UHGV virus genome: UHGV-0039951
DNA from: a virus
DNA length: 25,456 nt
Strand: one strand, 5' to 3'
The position numbers and the translations under genes were made by a program. This document shows positions 213 through 8,175 of this stretch, piece by piece. Numbering within the stretch: position 1 is the first letter of the stretch; each line of letters starts with the position of its first letter. The notes under the pieces were generated by a model that saw only the letters and a program-made list of their open reading frames with translations, was not told the DNA's origin and searched no databases.

Positions 213-3158
213 TTAGTGCTTCCCTTCTATTAAGTCTAACCTAGCTTTTATTCTTTCTATTTCTCTGCGCTGCCATGCCGCCTCGATATAGAATAAGAGA
301 TCAGGTCTGACCCCCCATCTAGATCCTGCTGGCGTTATTTCAACGCGCTCAATGATGTCTTCCATTACCATCACTGGATTATCATCCTCATCAACAATGA
401 TGCTCCCGTCATTATCAGTCAGCGGCATTTCCCTTTGGCCAGTAATGACGTCATCATATACTGCGGGATAATCGTCATAGCAAAGAAAGGCATAGCGGCA
501 TGTTGTGCTTTCTTCTTCCATGAGTCCGTGAGAAATAAGAACATCACGAAGTTGCTGCGCGATTACACCATGATGTATCCTCGCCCCTTCTTCCCCCTTT
601 ATAGCGACAGCGTTCAGCCATTTATAAGCGATATACCTGACGTCACCCCAGGCATCCAGCAATGTTTCGTCAGGAGAGACCGGCTCTGTCTTTAATGTTC
701 CGTCACTGGTAACCACAGGATTGGAGCCAAGATAAACTATCGAGAACCTGTTTCCCGGACCACCAAGAGCATTTACATTATCAAGATAAGGTTTAACATC
801 TCCGTTCTCAAAAAGATGTTCGAGTGCGTTATATACCGCGCGACGTGGAGTACTGCTTCCGGAACCATGCAACGTTATCATTGCACCATCTGCTGAAGAC
901 GTTGTTTCACCGCCGCTAACGATTAATCTCTGAGCGGTAACATCATCAGACGGTACTTTCTTCGCAATAATGGCGTAATTACCCTCAAGTTTGACTTCCG
1001 CGCGAACTTGTCCTGATGTACCTGCATGGACAGTCAGTGACTGGACGGCAACATCATCTGTGAAATCAACGGGTACAGGAACCGTCCTCACGCCTGACGT
1101 CGACATAAAAGTAGGAAGCGTTCTGTTAGGAGTGGCTCCGTAGACAAAATCCCTTGAAACAAATTCTTCCTGTTTAATTTTCACCCTGAAACAATACAAA
1201 TCAGCCGGGTGACCATCGTGAACATAAGGATATTTTCTGTTGTTATCCCCTATGCTCCATGGGTTTAGAAAGTCTTCCCCACCGAAAATGTAGTACAGCC
1301 AGTTGTCTTTGATACAAACTGAACCAACACCAACCGCAGAGTTAACTATTCCGCCCTGATAAATCTGATCAGTAACATTAACCCACTCTACATTATCCAG
1401 ACTCCACTCATTGACGTTAACTCTGGTCATAAATGTTCTTGGATAGTTTCCTGCATAACGGTTATCAGGTTCTCCTCCTTCCCACTCACCAAATGCGCGC
1501 TCACTGCCAAAAATAATCAGCTCATCGCCAACTTTGGCAAAAGGAAGGTTTGAGTGATGAACATTATTTGGGAAGCGAAGAGAATTCCATGATGTACCTA
1601 AATCAGAGCTTCTGTGCAATGAACTACCGGGTTGAGTACTTAATGTCCCCCTGGTCGTCAGATACAGAATGCCATCATAATATTTTACACATGGCTCAGA
1701 TGCATTCGCCTCATATTCTGCAGGTATGCGTCTGCGAACAAAGCTACCAGGAGAACCGAAAGCATCAGAGAAATAGAGTATCCCAAGCTCGCGTGGACCA
1801 ATATCACCATTATGGTAGCCAACAGCAAAACTGTTATCGCTAATCGTCGCAAAACTGTGAATCTCAGTAACAGGAGTGCTTCCGTCAACAAAAGAAGGAA
1901 TAGTTCCAAGACTGGTTTTTCTCCATGGTGACGAGTGAAATGATGTACCAAAACTCCAGTATCTACCCTCGTTATTCTGATCCACATCCTGGGTATTTTG
2001 CGTCGTAACTGTAAAAGTATTTTTATCAATAACAGTAGTCACCGTCATATTCCCGGTAACACCTGTAACACCAGAGTTTGAGAAGTTGACAAAATCACCA
2101 GCAAATAATCCGTGATCAGTAATGCGAATATAAGCGACTTGCTGATTTGCTGCTTTCGTTATACCACCATAAACGCGAAGGCTGCGACTCATTGGGCGAT
2201 CCCACAACTCTGCAACCTGCAGTTTATTTCCGCTCACGGTCCGCGTCTCAATTACAGCAAAAAGGCGATTTCTGACAACCCCCATACTCATGCAGTGATA
2301 GTTAACTGTGGGATAGTTTTCATGTAAATCTGTAAGCCATTCCGGCGTTGTCCAGGTCTTCCCGTCATCTCCTGAGCGAACCCATGCAACATGGAGGTTA
2401 TTTACACCATGGCGGTCTCCAGCCATAAAAGGCGCATAGATGACATTGTCATATACAAACGTTTTATCCTGCGTCCAGGCGTTGTACCACGGTGTATCTG
2501 TAATTTTAAATAACTCTCCCTGGATAAAATCTTCAGAAACATAAAAAAGAGGCTGACCCGGTATTCTCTCAAATAAAAAACGAGCATTTTTAAATCGACT
2601 GACATCTGGAAGAGTTGATACTTTAAAAGTAAGCCCTCGCCCATCTATCTTTTCACCACCTGTTGCAACAGAAAGTAATTCTGATAGAGCTGATGTATCA
2701 TCATGAACACCATCACCAATAGCCCCCCAACCTCTTACATCATAACTGTCTCTCCATCTTGCTATCTGAAGTTTTGGGTATTTATTCGCTCCATCTGGGT
2801 CTTCTAATTGCTGCCGTAACTGATCAGGATCATACTTCAGCACATTCGGAAAATAGAACTGCTGTGTACCATACGCATCATAAACAGCCATAGAATGGCC
2901 TTGCACGGTTACGAATTTGGCAATCTGTCCGTTATATACCGGATATCCAGCAGCGTTAATGATGATTGGTTGAGAAACAGGAACGTGAGATCCATCTTCG
3001 TTCTCTACATAAACCTGAATCTGGTTTTCAGGATTTACCGGGTCAGTGTCAATTTTTCCGATATAAATTTTGCCATTGGCTACGGCTTTAAAAGAACGCG
3101 CCATAGTGAAGAGTTGCGAAGGCATACTCACTACAACATTGGCTGTAATGTCTGTCAT
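213..3158 (-). CDS. Tailspike protein: P22 gp9-type head-binding N-terminal domain, sialidase-like (Asp-box) receptor-degrading domain, likely endosialidase; C-terminal intramolecular chaperone (peptidase S74-type) domain
   Basis: 981 aa. The N-terminal ~110 aa ([56 protein letters not shown]...) match the P22 tailspike head-binding domain as I recall it. Two Asp-box motifs ([16 protein letters not shown]) and xRIP motifs (FERIP, RRRIP). The C-terminal ~160 aa begin at S818 in the motif SDGTLK, the pattern of self-cleaving chaperone domains of endosialidases and T5 L-shaped tail fibre. Confidence 0.85.
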
Positions 3159-3290
3159 TTAATTTGCTCCAGATACAAGGAATGGCCGCAGCATGGCTAC
3201 GGTTGGCATTTGTTACATACCGAAACGGTACGATTGTTGATTTGTACAGTGGGTTTTACGATGCCATTCCACCCATTTGGTGAGGCATTG

Positions 3291-3548
3291 ATGATGTACA
3301 GCAAATACGATGAGGCGCAGTTCCACTTGAGGCTTACACACGAGTTGCACGCTAAGATTAAGCAGCGTGCAAAAATGAATAACAGGTCTATCAATTCCGA
3401 AATTGTGGCTACGATGGAAGAATCACTCTCCAAACCATCACCTGTAAGCGGGTATCGTGATGAAGAAGAGAGGCTGGCCTCATTAATCTCGGAACGAGTA
3501 AAAGAAGTTGCGGCTGAAATTCTAAGGAAAGAAAAAACCCGCGATTAA
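3291..3548 (+). CDS. mnt: Mnt-like ribbon-helix-helix (Arc/MetJ superfamily) repressor, 85 aa
   Basis: Only the C-terminal part of ORF 2895..3548 is plausible. ATG at 3291 is preceded by GGTGAGG (3278-3284). The protein (FHLRLTHELHAKIKQRAKMNNRSINSEIVATMEESLSKPSPVSGYRDEEERLA...) closely parallels P22 Mnt (NGRSMNSELLQIVQDALSKPSPVTGYRNDAERLA) as recalled. Confidence 0.7.
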   Translation: MMYSKYDEAQFHLRLTHELHAKIKQRAKMNNRSINSEIVATMEESLSKPSPVSGYRDEEERLASLISERVKEVAAEILRKEKTRD

Positions 3549-3563
3549 GCGGGTTTAGTTTTC
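3532..3563. terminator. Bidirectional intrinsic terminator between the convergent mnt-like gene and the antirepressor gene
   Basis: Stem AAACCCGC / GCGGGTTT with loop GATTAA, flanked by an A-run on the 5' side and T-rich sequence on the 3' side, so it works in both orientations. The mnt-like stop codon lies in the loop. Confidence 0.6.
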
Positions 3564-3574
3564 ATTATAAAATG

Positions 3575-4303
3575 TTACGCCACATTTGAGCCATGTAGCA
3601 GGTGTTGTAGTGCTTTAACGCCTTCAGAATTGTAACGGAACGCCTCTACCTGTTTGCTGGAATGCGCCGATTTATCTAGGAAGAACTTCCCGTACTGCTC
3701 AGTTTTGAGGTTGTTTGCGTTAGCAATGCGACCAATCTTGTTGGCCGTTACTCCAAGCTGCTCTGCAACCTCCCCTGCTGAGTAGTAATGCTCTTCTATT
3801 GCCGGAAGAGGTATTGCATTAAAACCAACGAGCGGGTTGATTATACTTGCTGCCGCTGTCTGCTTTGCCTCAGGCGCAAGATTTGGCATCAGATCGAACA
3901 GATTGGTAACAGCTTCAACCGTCATTTTCAATGTTCTCGCTTGACGATACTCAACAAGTCCACTCGCTGATTTACCGCTTTTAATGTGCGCTTCTTGCAT
4001 ACTTTCAAGTTGGTCTACCAGTGAGCGGCGAACGGCTTTTGACTCGCGAGCGGCAACTCGCAATGCTTGCTTGATTGACATCTCAATGATAACCATCGAA
4101 GTTTTGTTCGCTTTTTGCACTACACTTTTTGTGTAGTGCTCTCCATCCAATTCATCTTCAATTTTCTCGATGAATTTGTTATTACGAACCTCCGGCTCAC
4201 CGCACTGTCTACGAGCCTGATTTACCATCTCAAGCAGGCGCTGGCTGTCAATGGTTTTATCCGTGACAACGGATCCGATGTTTGCTACATTCTTAAAAGT
4301 CAT
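3575..4303 (-). CDS. Antirepressor-like protein (AntA-like N-terminus, KilAC-like C-terminal motif), 243 aa
   Basis: ORF 3575..4354 trimmed to the ATG at 4303 (MTFKNVANIG...), which is preceded by AAGGAA at 7-nt spacing. The C-terminal motif YYSAGEVAEQLGVTANKIGRIANANNLKTEQYGKFF resembles KilAC domains. Family assignment from recalled motifs only. Confidence 0.5.
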   Translation of the reverse strand: MTFKNVANIGSVVTDKTIDSQRLLEMVNQARRQCGEPEVRNNKFIEKIEDELDGEHYTKSVVQKANKTSMVIIEMSIKQALRVAARESKAVRRSLVDQLESMQEAHIKSGKSASGLVEYRQARTLKMTVEAVTNLFDLMPNLAPEAKQTAAASIINPLVGFNAIPLPAIEEHYYSAGEVAEQLGVTANKIGRIANANNLKTEQYGKFFLDKSAHSSKQVEAFRYNSEGVKALQHLLHGSNVA

Positions 4304-4371
4304 TAGGCATTCCTTATGTGGTAGTAAGGGTGTGACATAGGCCGCCAGCAGCACACTGGCGGTTTTCTTTT
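4298..4371 (+). ncRNA. Putative Sar-like antisense RNA covering the RBS and start codon of the downstream antirepressor gene
   Basis: Candidate promoter GTGACA (4263-4268), 17-nt spacer, TACATT (4286-4291), then about 74 nt to the plus-strand terminator. The transcript would be complementary to the ATG at 4303 and SD at 4311-4316. Analogy to P22 sar RNA; inference only. Confidence 0.25.
4342..4371 (+). terminator. Plus-strand intrinsic terminator antisense to the antirepressor operon
   Basis: Perfect 7-bp stem CCGCCAG / CTGGCGG with 7-nt loop, followed by TTTTCTTTTT on the plus strand. On the minus strand the hairpin is followed by no U-tract, so it is orientation-specific. Confidence 0.55.
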
Positions 4372-4391
4372 TGCGCCGTCCGGCGCACCAA

Positions 4392-5030
4392 TCAATGAAT
4401 CCATTCCTCGCCGCGCAGTTTTGCCAGCATTGGCTGAGCGTTCTTTACGACAAAATTGTTGGTATCAAGATTCTTCATTTCACGAAGAAGTGATTTCTTG
4501 GTTTCTTCTGACATGTAGCGAGTCTCATATGCAATATCGTAAATCCTTCCAGAAAGCTCAGAACCAATTTGCTTCATTCCTGGGTAGATGTGTTTGCACA
4601 TTTGTTGACTCTTCTCCATCCACAATTGTAAGTAGCAGAGATTAACCAGCTCTTCGTCAGTAAACTGTTTTGCAATCGGTGAGCATTCTGCCTGCCGATC
4701 CAAAATATCCAGCACCCAGCGGCGGAACTCTTTAGCCTTGGGCGTAGAAGCAAACATCGCCACCAAGTGAGCGCCTCGGAGCGAGTAAACTCTGACCGAT
4801 TTGTTACGTAAGCTATTGTTTATCCCGTTGACCTTCATATTGAGGGTCAATGACATTGAGTCGGAAAACTCGTCAGCATTACGGGCATAAATTTGGCTGA
4901 TGGCATCAGTTTTTTTATAGCCGAGAGCCTTAGCTAGTTCGGTGGAGGTAAACCAGATAGACCCACCCTCTGTTACAGGGTTAAAGGTGAATCCTTGGAA
5001 GTTATAATCTGATTTTGCTATAATGTTCAT
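4392..5030 (-). CDS. ant: Antirepressor with BRO-N-type N-terminal domain (Ant-like), 212 aa from ATG 5030; ORF could extend to 5114
   Basis: The motif YNFQGFTFNPVTEGGSIWFTSTELAKALGY is typical of BRO-N/antirepressor N-termini. ATG at 5030 is preceded by AAGGAA. An alternative start at 5114 also has an SD and would overlap the arc-like stop. Confidence 0.6.
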   Translation of the reverse strand: MNIIAKSDYNFQGFTFNPVTEGGSIWFTSTELAKALGYKKTDAISQIYARNADEFSDSMSLTLNMKVNGINNSLRNKSVRVYSLRGAHLVAMFASTPKAKEFRRWVLDILDRQAECSPIAKQFTDEELVNLCYLQLWMEKSQQMCKHIYPGMKQIGSELSGRIYDIAYETRYMSEETKKSLLREMKNLDTNNFVVKNAQPMLAKLRGEEWIH

Positions 5031-5103
5031 GTTAGTTTCCTTGCATACGGTTACTGACATAGAGGCCCGGTTTGTGTTCGCGCACTGCCGGGCTTCACTG
5101 TTT

Positions 5104-5277
5104 TTACTGGGCATTAGCTCTTTCCTCTCTCAGGCTTTTAGCCAGTCGCTGCACAATCGCAGAGTTGATAGAAATTCCATCCATTTCAGCAACACGTCTA
5201 ATCTCCTCCTTCATTCGCGCTGGCAAACGAAGCTGGAAACTTTGGCTTTTACGACCTGTGTAAAGCACATCTTTCAT
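5104..5277 (-). CDS. arc: Arc-like ribbon-helix-helix repressor, 57 aa
   Basis: ATG at 5277 preceded by GGGAGA. The protein MKDVLYTGRKSQSFQLRLPARMKEEIRRVAEMDGISINSAIVQRLAKSL parallels P22 Arc (QFNLRWPREVLDLVRKVAEENGRSVNSEIYQRVMESF). The ORF-track start at 5292 is a GTG inside the SD region. Confidence 0.65.
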   Translation of the reverse strand: MKDVLYTGRKSQSFQLRLPARMKEEIRRVAEMDGISINSAIVQRLAKSLREERANAQ

Positions 5278-5298
5278 AAGTAATTCTCCCACAATGAT

Positions 5299-5356
5299 AC
5301 CAACTTGGTTCTAGAACCAATTTAACACCATTTATTTTGATGTCAAGTTGGTGCTA
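5299..5356. promoter_or_regulatory. Divergent control region: Pant-like promoter on minus strand (-35 TTGACA 5346..5341, -10 TAAATT 5324..5319) with operator-like palindromes
   Basis: Perfect 16-bp palindrome TTGGTTCTAGAACCAA (5305-5320) overlapping the -10 and start site. Inverted half-sites ACCAACTTGG (5299-5308) and CAAGTTGGTG (5347-5356). The arrangement mirrors the P22 immI Pant/Omnt/Oarc layout. Confidence 0.45.
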
Positions 5357-5388
5357 TTGTTTAGCGAACATCTTTACGTTGAGGTCAT

Positions 5389-5772
5389 ATGAGCAAGTTC
5401 CCTAGTCATGAAATGGATAGGTTCAATATCAGGCTTCCGGCAGGAATGCGGGATGCTATAGCCTTAAGAGCAAAGGAAAACGGCAGATCAATGAATACAG
5501 AACTAGTGTTTATCATTGATGATGCATTGAAGTCTCCGGTGCCTGCTGAGGTTGATAACTCAAGGATTATGAAGATTTACTCAAACCTCTCCGGGAACAG
5601 GCCATCAAACAAAGAAGAGTTTGAGCGGTGGGAGAATGAGCTAGTCAAAGCAATTTTCTACTTACTAGATAGCATCAGTTCTCATTCGCAAATGTACCAA
5701 GCTCTCAGGAGCTTAAGGCAAGATGCATATAAAAATGTTTTTGGCGATGATGCTGAAGACATCCAGTTTTGA
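5389..5772 (+). CDS. Mnt/Arc-type ribbon-helix-helix regulator with ~80-aa C-terminal extension, 127 aa
   Basis: ATG at 5389 preceded by GAGG. The N-terminus ([38 protein letters not shown]) is an RHH motif of Mnt type. Divergent from the arc/ant operon. Confidence 0.7.
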
Positions 5773-5816
5773 AGACCATTTCATCTGGTATCTTGCGTAA
5801 AACTAAGGAGGTTGGT

Positions 5817-6311
5817 GTGTCTGATTCTATGAGTTACGCTGTGCTAGTTGCCGCAACTCTATTTCTGGGGATAGGGTTGCAGATTGCGTGGTTCTTTTTT
5901 TCTAGTTTTATTAAACGTAAAAGAATTGAATCAAGGATATCTGAGATTTCTATTGCTATAGGGAAAAATGCTGAAAATCCAGAGAATGAGGCCTGCGCAC
6001 TGAATTACCTTAAAGAAAAGTTTTCCCCTGAAAAATTTGAAAACAGAATTACTGATGCTCTTGGATTGGTAATATCAGTAATTCATATGCCACTAAGTTT
6101 GCTGATAACAGTGTGGTACTTCGCCATGATCGCCGGAAGAATATTTGGCTTCATGAATATAGAGCCTGTAGTTCTTTGGGTTCCAATGATACTGCAACTG
6201 TTGTTAAGCGTTGCTATCTTTATTTTTTCTGTTTTTATAAAAATTGTCTTTGGAAGATACCCCGGAGAAGCGAAGGGATTTAATAAAGAATTCATAAAAA
6301 CTATAAAATAA
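5817..6311 (+). CDS. Small integral membrane protein (3 predicted TM helices); candidate superinfection-exclusion or lysogenic-conversion protein at the position sieA occupies in P22
   Basis: The ORF-track start at 5769 is TTG. A strong SD (AAGGAGG, 5804-5810) sits 6 nt before GTG 5817. Three hydrophobic segments. AT-rich composition relative to neighbours. Confidence 0.55.
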
Positions 6312-6333
6312 ATGCCGTCCTTGGCTTACAGTG

Positions 6334-8175
6334 CTACTGCCGGGTCGCTTCGTTAGCTAAGAGCGGGCGCACGGCAGTAGCCGCCTGATTTAGCGCTCTT
6401 TCATAGGCTGGTGTTCCTGCTTTGGTGTTTGCCAGACGTAAGAGCGCATTCCTTGCTGCTTTGGACTCATACAAACGCATCATTGCACCAAAACCAGCCT
6501 CAAGCCCCATTGATACGCCAAGAGTCGCGGTTGCGCCAATCGTCCTTATCCTGTTGGCTTGCGATTGCCCCGTCTGAGTTACTACATTTGCGGTGTCTGA
6601 CCTTGCTGTTTGCTGTAGAACTTCATGAAGAGCATCAAGCTCTTTCATATGCTTTCCAGAAAAAATAGTGTTGTAAATTTCACCACCTGACTGAGATTTC
6701 AGCTTATTAACTTCAGTGATGAACTTGGCTGGAGAGTCACCGGCCTTTTCCGCTATTTTGCTGACGTAAGCTGCACGCATAGCATCTTTACCATTATCAT
6801 CCAATGCGCTCCAGATTCGTTTCACGTCAGATGGTTTTCTGCTTAATACAACGGTATTTATAAGTTCAGGGCTGGCTTCACTACTTGCCTTATTGAGCTT
6901 GTTAGCAATGTTTTTATTAAGCACCTTATTATAAACGTTTGCATAATCGGAATTTGCTTTAAGGTATTTTGCTGCGTCTGATGCACCGCGGTTTTTAGCA
7001 ACTGCGTTACGAAGGTCTTTTGACATTGCATTCTCTACCATATTGGTAGCTGCTTTTGCCTGGTTGGGGAAGACCATAGCATCTCCCTGAACATTAGATC
7101 TAAATGCTGTTCTGTGCTGACGCAAGAGATCAAACGTAACCTCCAAATCAGTTGCAGGGTTTGCTAATTCTTCACGTAGGTTACGTAAGGATGTAAGCAG
7201 GCTTTGATTGGCAGACGTCCCAAGCCGTTCCTGTCTTGCGATCGCTGTATTCAGAGCATTCATGGTATTTGTGGTATCAACTGCGGCATTACCCATTTTA
7301 TTGGTGACGTCATTGATAACAGCGCCAGCGGCATCCTTCCGCCCCCTTAACGTGGTGGTCAGAGATTTCACCACATCATCAGGGTTGTACTCACCAAAAC
7401 GGTCAAAATAATTACTTACCAGCTTACTACGCGTTGCATATTGCTCCGCTCGCTTTGAGCCTGTCCCGAGCAAAGCCCCCTCGGCATCCTGAGTAAGGCC
7501 GCGAGTGAAAGCATTTTTCGGCGGGATAACATCAGATGTCATTGGTGTCACGCCCATCGATTCTGATGTGGCAATTTTATTCGCCACTTCTGGCGCAATA
7601 TCACCTTTTATAGCCGTTATTCCACGCCCTATTCCCTTTGCTGCTGCGGAAAGAACACCCTGAGCGGCAAGGTTAACTCCGGCATTTTTAGCTGCATTTT
7701 GTGCGAAATCGCCTTTCTGATTTGCGGCCTCTGCCAGTGAGCCAATAGCCATGCTTCCTGCCGTTCCAACTCCTGGAACTAAATACCCACCAATTGTTTC
7801 ACCGGCTTGCGCGTAGGGGTCTGTCGGTCTGTCTACTGGACGATAAACATCATCCAAAACCTTGGGTCCACCAAGCCCCTGACTGATTGCATTAATCAGA
7901 CTTGCGCCACCCTGCAAAACGTCAAATGGTATGTTCACCAGACCACGACCAGCCTGTTCTGCAATTTGCCCTGCACTTTGACCACCAGTGAGCCAATCGC
8001 CAGCTTGTTGCATCAATGATGGTTCTTCACGTGCTGGTTCATTATTGGCCTGATTAACTGTTTGTTGCTGAACAGCCTGACCAGCAAAATACTCATCAAT
8101 GGCGGTGCCAATATCTTCCGTGCTCGTACCATCAGGGAAGGTAAATGTCTTACCGTTTGCAGTTACTTTCATCAT
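6334..8175 (-). CDS. Ejection (injection) protein, P22 gp16-like
   Basis: 613 aa; last of three ejection-protein genes after the tail needle, in P22 order 7-20-16; size matches P22 gp16 (~609 aa). Assigned by synteny and size. Confidence 0.7.

Follow-up and report, generated by a model that had tools for sequence, protein, structure and literature searches.

The 25,456-nucleotide stretch of DNA analysed here, UHGV virus genome UHGV-0039951 (the window), represents an Escherichia coli prophage of the P22-like (Lederbergvirus) type, and its minus strand carries a run of three genes, arc, ant and a second antirepressor-type gene that we call gene2. This run lies within the late operon, bordered by the DNA-ejection genes and by the tailspike gene (Table 1). 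The immunity I (immI) region of phage P22 is the textbook example of layered antirepressor control, exerted by Mnt, Arc and sar. The three genes of the window, with gene 16 and sieA on one side and the tailspike gene on the other, occupy the P22 immI position, a hypervariable slot named the 'ant moron' by Villafane, Casjens and colleagues, who distinguished ten types of it among sixteen genomes (PMC2629481). The analysis presented below indicates that the arc-ant-gene2 unit is probably a cassette of the P22 immI ('ant moron') type that has two effector slots, each with a predicted antisense RNA of its own.

Table 1. Features of the arc-ant-gene2 region of the window, with the elements of the unit listed in the direction of its transcription and the neighbouring genes at the end.
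Feature	Position	Strand	Remarks
Pant-like promoter, TTGACA-16-TAAATT, TG-extended	5319..5346	minus	Consensus scan, 10/12 matches
Perfect 16-bp palindrome TTGGTTCTAGAACCAA	5305..5320	unstranded	Just 3' of the -10 of Pant
arc, 57 amino acids	5104..5277	minus	Pfam Arc, E 1e-11; PGAP call
Predicted sar1 RNA	5031..5106	plus	Spans arc-ant spacer and ant ribosome-binding site
Psar1, TTGGAA-18-TATAAT, TG-extended	4995..5024	plus	Inside first ant codons; consensus scan
ant, 212 amino acids, Bro-N + P22_AR_C	4392..5030	minus	PGAP call; Pfam; PHROG
Predicted sar2 RNA, ~78 nucleotides	4297..4375	plus	Covers gene2 start codon and AAGGAA ribosome-binding site
Psar2, GTGACA-17-TACATT, TG-extended	4263..4291	plus	Inside gene2 codons 5-14
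gene2, 242 amino acids	3575..4303	minus	P1-Ant-like N-domain, helical linker, winged-helix C-domain
Bidirectional intrinsic terminator	3535..3556	both	Ends arc-ant-gene2 operon and convergent Mnt-homologue gene
Full-length P22 Mnt homologue, 85 amino acids	3291..3548	plus	PGAP start 3261; convergent with gene2
Mnt-position ribbon-helix-helix gene, 127 amino acids	5389..5772	plus	Divergent from arc; Pfam Arc, E 1e-16
gp16-like ejection protein gene	6334..8175		P22 gene-16 type
Tailspike gene	213..3158	minus	

A first-pass annotation, made from the sequence alone, had described an Arc-like ribbon-helix-helix (RHH) gene followed on the same strand by a Bro-N-type antirepressor gene and by an unrelated antirepressor-like gene, and all three open reading frames were indeed present on the minus strand at the positions given for them. 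PGAP calls arc, ant and gene2 in the same way in an identical E. coli prophage, with gene2 starting at the ATG at 4303. The Pfam match of arc confirmed the Arc-like nature of the first gene, whose ribosome-binding site is GGGAGAA. Ant combines a Bro-N domain (Pfam, E 1.5e-10), as had been proposed, with a P22_AR_C domain (E 2.6e-13), the same C-domain that P22 Ant carries behind P22_AR_N, and it matches phrog_245, 'anti-repressor Ant' (E 6.5e-64); a PDB sequence search with Ant returned spurious designed-repeat matches only. Ant most likely inactivates a C2/CI-type repressor through binding. An alternative ant start, the ATG at 5114, was rejected, as the homologues and PGAP use 5030 and the in-frame extension is not conserved.

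The claim that the second effector is an antirepressor-like protein unrelated to Ant also held. Both proteins gave an E value of 0.26 when compared by BLASTP, and gene2 matches phrog_1726, 'anti-repressor', with an E value of 9e-101. When phage genomes were searched by tblastn, residues 14-106 of the gene2 protein were found to be 66% identical (63/95, E 6e-39) to residues 112-206 of P1 Ant1, and it is this identity that links gene2 to the antirepressors, since the anti-repressor activity of P1 Ant towards C1 has been defined experimentally (PMC8201110). The C-terminal half of gene2 is a MerR/Xis-like winged helix. A profile search covering 1.8 billion representatives showed the protein to be modular, many relatives sharing only residues ~105-240 and others only residues ~12-110. 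Among 66 relatives of the C-terminal half, the domain in front was Bro-N in 21, Phage_pRha in 16, KilA-N in 12, ORF6N in 7, P22_AR_N in 4 and AntA in 3, and 5 of 18 relatives sharing the N-terminal half carry a Pfam ANT/KilAC domain behind it. The full-length Foldseek matches of gene2 were phage 'antirepressor/KilAC/KilA' proteins. Taken together, these comparisons support the assignment of gene2 to the antirepressor architectural class.

The first-pass annotation had also given gene2 a KilAC-like C-terminus, a description that is right for the architectural slot, which is equivalent, and wrong for the sequence. KilAC (PF03374) was rejected as the identity of the C-domain because no Pfam match was obtained at E<=0.1 and the hhalign probability against ANT domains was 0.7%, so that the resemblance to KilAC proteins is one of overall fold and architecture only. 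Searches of gene2 against Pfam, NCBIfam, PADLOC and PDB sequences yielded nothing significant. That gene2 is nevertheless a real gene is indicated by its 2109 homologues in Enterobacterales, nearly all of them named 'hypothetical', by their strong conservation and by its ribosome-binding site. A GTG at 4354 was rejected as the gene2 start, given that homologues and PGAP begin at 4303 and that the in-frame extension is not conserved.

A predicted antisense layer, absent from the first-pass annotation, was found at the 5' end of both effector genes. At gene2, the putative RNA sar2 would start from Psar2 and end in an intrinsic terminator in the ant-gene2 spacer, formed by the hairpin at 4339..4365 and a T-run; it is the sole terminator between ant and gene2, and it faces the plus strand. 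A scan found this promoter and terminator independently in the window and in a Salmonella locus (L012). Across 16 loci from different genera, the -35 element, the sequence TGnTAnAnT and the 17-nucleotide spacing of the sar2 promoter are invariant and the spacer sequence is variable. The third positions of gene2 codons 5, 6, 7, 12 and 13 are invariant in 15/15 sequences although the encoded residues vary, and third positions elsewhere in the gene2 alignment are mostly free. The hairpin is 99.2% paired, with compensatory changes in 4 of its 8 pairs, and its score was reached by none of 500 shuffles; the signal collapses in slid registers, RNAalifold predicts the identical hairpin, and the G-U pairs and the T-run exist on the plus strand only.

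A covariance model built for sar2 matched the window at 4297..4373 with 75.9 bits and gave 33 matches with E<0.01 in the loci searched, all of them antisense to gene2-type genes; every gene start checked under these matches lies beneath the match, at the 5' end of the gene. Eleven of the loci with a match have an N-domain that is not P1-Ant-like, and of three that were read two were Rha-type and one Bro-N. Neither sar1 nor the genomes of P22, P1 and a Stx phage were matched by the model, and Rfam applied to the window returned noise only (terminator-driven hits to RyhB, SymR, isrK and SgrS, E>0.3). These data suggest that sar2 represents a putative small RNA family without a match in Rfam. Four loci with a swapped N-domain (L026, L030, L032 and L037, with gene starts near 4001, 3677, 3764 and 3755, respectively) in other genera retain the sar2 unit together with the linker and C-domain of gene2, their N-domains being Rha-type (VTKMSSREIA...) or Bro-N and the recombination joint lying just past the antisense promoter. 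Beyond the sar2 T-run, directly 3' of the ant stop codon, a GC hairpin GCGCCGGACGGCGC is found at ~4376..4389, which covaries in other loci (GCGCATGGGATGGCGC, GCGCTTAGAACAGCGC).

At ant, Psar1 aligns with the Psar region of P22 (TTGCTATAAT in the window vs TTGCTATACT in P22), and the sar1 stretch aligns with P22 sar, which Rfam RF00262 detects with a score of 97.8 bits. In its predicted fold, the sar1 RNA has two stem-loops (-33.3 kcal/mol, z -4.8), and it would end after a strong hairpin. The in-frame extension upstream of ant (5031..5114, minus strand; MPSKNSEARQCANTNRAS...) seems to be kept as a 'peptide' in many loci; its conservation is probably of the RNA and not of a coding sequence, because its DNA is that of the sar1 hairpin and because the peptide is missing in Proteus and Pantoea alvi. 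The two predicted antisense RNAs have in common a GACATAG directly 5' of the terminator hairpin (plus strand, 5057..5064 in sar1 and 4331..4338 in sar2), and P22 sar has CTGACA at the equivalent position; the motif may reflect a shared origin or a functional site.

The absence of a minus-strand terminator between ant and gene2, as claimed in the first-pass annotation, was borne out by a terminator scan, and a scan of the ant-gene2 spacer predicted neither a promoter nor a terminator on that strand. With a single promoter-like site upstream and no internal sense terminator, arc, ant and gene2 thus form, on this predicted layout, one minus-strand unit. The promoter-like site lies upstream of arc at the same position as in P22 and would work as Pant. 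Next to it, the palindrome TTGGTTCTAGAACCAA occurs once in the window at a position matching that of O_mnt of P22, which makes it a candidate Mnt/Arc-type operator.

The unit is bracketed by two Mnt-like genes of opposite orientation. The product of the divergent gene at the mnt position, named 'Arc family DNA-binding protein' by PGAP, matches phrog_3178 (E 2.6e-59) and is 50% identical to P22 Mnt over a 42-amino-acid RHH domain only. At the far end, between gene2 and the tailspike gene and running against late transcription, lies a gene beyond the range covered by the first-pass annotation, whose product (Pfam Arc, E 3e-15) is 45% identical over 73 amino acids to P22 Mnt, C-terminal part included, and whose homologue in phage JEP4 is annotated as 'mnt'. 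A second palindrome, TACCGAAACGGTA, is present upstream of this gene at 3218..3230; an operator search found it and the Pant palindrome to be single-copy sequences, and no operator was assignable to the individual Mnt-like proteins. Some cassette copies have, in place of the divergent Mnt-position gene, one for a C2/LexA-like repressor with helix-turn-helix and Peptidase_S24 domains, as in phage JEP4 (L001, 6437..7078), which shares the ant-gene2 pair and sar2 with the window, and in Morganella (L004/L007, 3033..3884); through this replacement, the antirepressor operon would become linked to a repressor that can be cleaved.

The first-pass annotation had described an expanded immI-like module. 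Far from being confined to this phage, the module turned out to be a conserved mobile cassette of many genera and phage types. Of 5426 complete E. coli genomes, 53 contain the arc-ant-gene2 block with a coverage of at least 80%. Siphovirus-type prophages of Serratia, Morganella, Salmonella, Yersinia and Proteus have the same gene order, which in every case runs in the direction of the late genes. The order in Morganella, Serratia and Salmonella is a divergent RHH or LexA-like repressor gene, arc, the Bro-N ant and gene2, and the cassette is inserted there between the tail chaperone and tape-measure genes, co-directional with the tail genes. When gene2 loci of 14 different species were compared, the preceding gene encoded a Bro-N Ant in 12, a true P22-type Ant in one and Arc in one; the antirepressor genes lie 60-90 nucleotides upstream of gene2 on the same strand (13/14), and the arc gene of the fourteenth lies ~190 nucleotides upstream, also on the same strand. 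In Xenorhabdus gene2 directly follows arc. The C-domains of the Bro-N Ant proteins are of at least two kinds, five of the eight scanned having P22_AR_C and three having no Pfam C-domain. In the second slot of Chimaeribacter, Yersinia and Proteus, the linker and C-domain of gene2 are kept behind an N-domain of Rha-type or Bro-N.

The way in which the cassette would be expressed, its RNAs would act and its proteins would find their targets can be modelled on P22. After infection, Pant would fire to provide Arc, Ant and the gene2 protein, and Arc would then close Pant; in the lysogen, a Mnt-like repressor would hold Pant silent. Read-through transcripts of the late operon would run across both effector genes, which would explain why each of them has an antisense RNA of its own. 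This RNA would be made in cis from a promoter with a TG-extended -10 in the first codons of the gene, end at a terminator in the upstream spacer and, by pairing with the ribosome-binding region, stop translation, sar1 acting on ant and sar2 on gene2. The rationale is that given for P22 (PMC2629481, PMC12111858): late transcription reading through runs into the cassette, and a harmful reading frame there needs a translational block.

Several points weigh against this interpretation. Both antisense RNAs, Pant and the operators are predictions from sequence, and the counts of promoters and terminators predicted in the window as a single sequence are not above shuffled expectation, for which reason the argument for sar2 is comparative. 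Searching positions 3000..6400 of the window gave no match to the sar family RF00262, even at E<=5; judged by its alignment, sar1 is a homologue of P22 sar that has diverged too far for the Rfam model. Either of the two Mnt-like proteins may act at Pant, and Arc control is not obligatory, as gene2 occurs without arc and ant in a Salmonella tail operon (L012). Concerning gene2 itself, the only solved or characterised close relative is one domain of P1 Ant1; its C-domain resembles a DNA-binding winged helix, so that a transcription factor would also fit; and it is 65-90% conserved across phages with differing Ant partners, which is unexpected for a repressor-specific antirepressor. The winged helix and the high conservation would both be accounted for if gene2 encoded a regulator that binds DNA, or else a 'Kil/Rha-like' protein directed at the host, having only the modular architecture in common with antirepressors and being silenced as toxic or mistimed. 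This is the main rival explanation, but we regard it as less likely in view of the identity between gene2 and the core of P1 Ant1, whose antirepressor function is proven, of the location of gene2 in an Arc-controlled slot beside ant, or directly after arc in Xenorhabdus, and of a tight double control such as is known for P22 ant. It is more doubtful still that the gene2 protein is a broad-target trans-acting factor that uses its conserved linker and winged helix on a target common to many temperate phages or to the host, with an exchangeable N-domain (P1-Ant-like, Rha or Bro-N) tuning its specificity and sar2 silencing it in late read-through transcripts; if it were, an infecting phage could wake or disarm heteroimmune resident prophages, and the cassette would be a two-effector, two-small-RNA anti-immunity device moving between podovirus and siphovirus late operons. 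Most likely, the gene2 protein is a second antirepressor-type factor directed at a different, more conserved target; that the two proteins have two different repressor targets, one of the possibilities named in the first-pass annotation, is a hypothesis only.

The two remaining explanations, which concern sar2 and the operon, seem to us distinctly improbable. According to one of them, sar2 would not be an RNA regulator but a leftover or protective plus-strand terminator, and the conservation of its promoter would come from constraint on gene2 coding or on mRNA structure. Consistent with it are the promoter-like match of Psar2, which is only 9/12, a hairpin that is conserved on both strands by symmetry, and the lack of an Rfam family. 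However, the -35 and -10 elements fall exactly on the five third-codon positions that do not vary, the promoter spacing is fixed around a variable sequence, and the strand-specific G-U pairs and T-run are those of an RNA read from the plus strand; moreover, the unit accompanies gene2-type genes regardless of their N-domain, is missing in the Stx-phage homologue outside the late operon, and equals P22 Psar/sar in design. The other explanation, with as little probability in our estimate, takes gene2 for an independent moron under its own control that lies fortuitously downstream of ant and outside the Arc/Mnt operon, as might be concluded from the Salmonella tail operon, where gene2 and sar2 stand alone, and from a spacer hairpin that might attenuate sense transcription. 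Against it stand the spacer devoid of predicted minus-strand promoters and terminators, the antirepressor or arc gene that precedes gene2 in all 14 species loci, and the repetition of the order in the three variants of Chimaeribacter, Yersinia and Proteus. A two-slot P22-type cassette with paired antisense RNAs is therefore the explanation that we prefer.

The logic of P22 immI has then apparently been duplicated for a second, P1-Ant-related effector, in a two-slot version that is common in Enterobacterales prophages. A 'hypothetical' family of more than 2000 members becomes linkable to a proven antirepressor, and the cassette offers a natural system for asking whether tandem antirepressors hit different repressors, that is, for studying prophage cross-talk. 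In the literature searched, no account was found of the arc-ant-gene2 tandem, of a second RNA of the sar type or of the link between gene2 and P1 Ant; the nearest report is the 2008 epsilon34 paper, on ant-moron variability. New in the present work are accordingly the cassette, the gene2-P1 Ant link and sar2, the ant moron, its variability and sar being already known.

As for the surrounding prophage, the 3.3 kb around arc-ant-gene2 occur with 100% identity in the chromosomes of two E. coli strains of avian origin. The SieA-like gene matches phrog_7745 (E 8e-109), and sieA and gene 16 are ~94% identical to those of P22, the figure for sieA being at the DNA level. The tailspike is a chimera in which the P22 head-binding domain (residues 1-113) is joined to a complete endosialidase (N-extension, beta-propeller, beta-barrel and tail-spike domain) and a Peptidase_S74 intramolecular chaperone, and this junction of a P22 head-binding domain with an endosialidase suggests a K1-capsule-specific P22-like phage of CUS-3 type. 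In the otherwise identical prophage of E. coli MS1657 (L002, 1..3559), the tailspike gene is interrupted by the IS66-family element ISCro1 and annotated as a pseudogene, whereas the copy in the window is intact.

Compared with known systems, the Stx2a phages (e.g., Stx2a_WGPS6 and PA2) carry full-length gene2 homologues with ~60% identity; gene2 matches were obtained in more than 100 records of Stx2a-converting phages, the Stx records listed having 59-63% identity over 84-98% of the protein. In WGPS6 (L071, 3492..5176), the one such locus that was read, the homologue adjoins an AntA + P22_AR_C antirepressor gene in reverse gene order. It is placed close to int, in the early-left region, and has a sense terminator upstream but neither an Arc gene nor a sar2 unit. 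The two modules of gene2 recombine with the domains of the phage regulators that combine Bro-N, KilA-N, Rha or AntA with KilAC or P22_AR_C, but, in contrast to those domains, neither of the two is represented by a model in Pfam or NCBIfam.

In P1, Ant1 has a Pfam ANT/KilAC C-domain (E 1e-30) behind the domain shared with gene2, in contrast to gene2, which has none. A second gene of the KilAC class, kilA, directly follows ant in P1, much as a second gene follows ant in the window, although gene2 is unrelated to P1 KilA; an antisense promoter, P53as, reportedly lies at the 5' end of kilA (Heinrich et al. 1995). Whereas ant1/ant2 of P1 are controlled by C4 RNA and by translational coupling to icd, the gene upstream of gene2 is ant and not icd, and Rfam gave no match to C4 RNA in the window. 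The synthesis of the P1 antirepressor is held down by an antisense-type RNA (PMC8201110), comparable to the predicted antisense units of the window.

The closest counterpart is P22 immI, which shares with the window the genomic slot (PMC2629481), an Arc-family first gene, a divergent Mnt-like gene, a P22_AR_C antirepressor and, between arc and ant, an antisense unit of the sar type that is homologous. The window differs from P22 in having Bro-N in place of P22_AR_N as the N-domain of Ant, a further effector gene after ant that brings an antisense unit of its own, a full-length Mnt homologue at the far end and a different, 127-amino-acid RHH protein at the mnt position. In P22, gene2 is reduced to an 18-amino-acid relic, RLGNELEGETYKKIVGRK, located between the ant terminator and gene 9 (L003, ~2138..2191), which is 67% identical by tblastn over its 18 amino acids to members of the family (E 0.002 within the locus) and has a copy of the gene-9 leader sequence AAAATTCACCGTAGCCA on either side. 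This arrangement suggests that P22 derives from a two-slot ancestor and lost the second slot by deletion.

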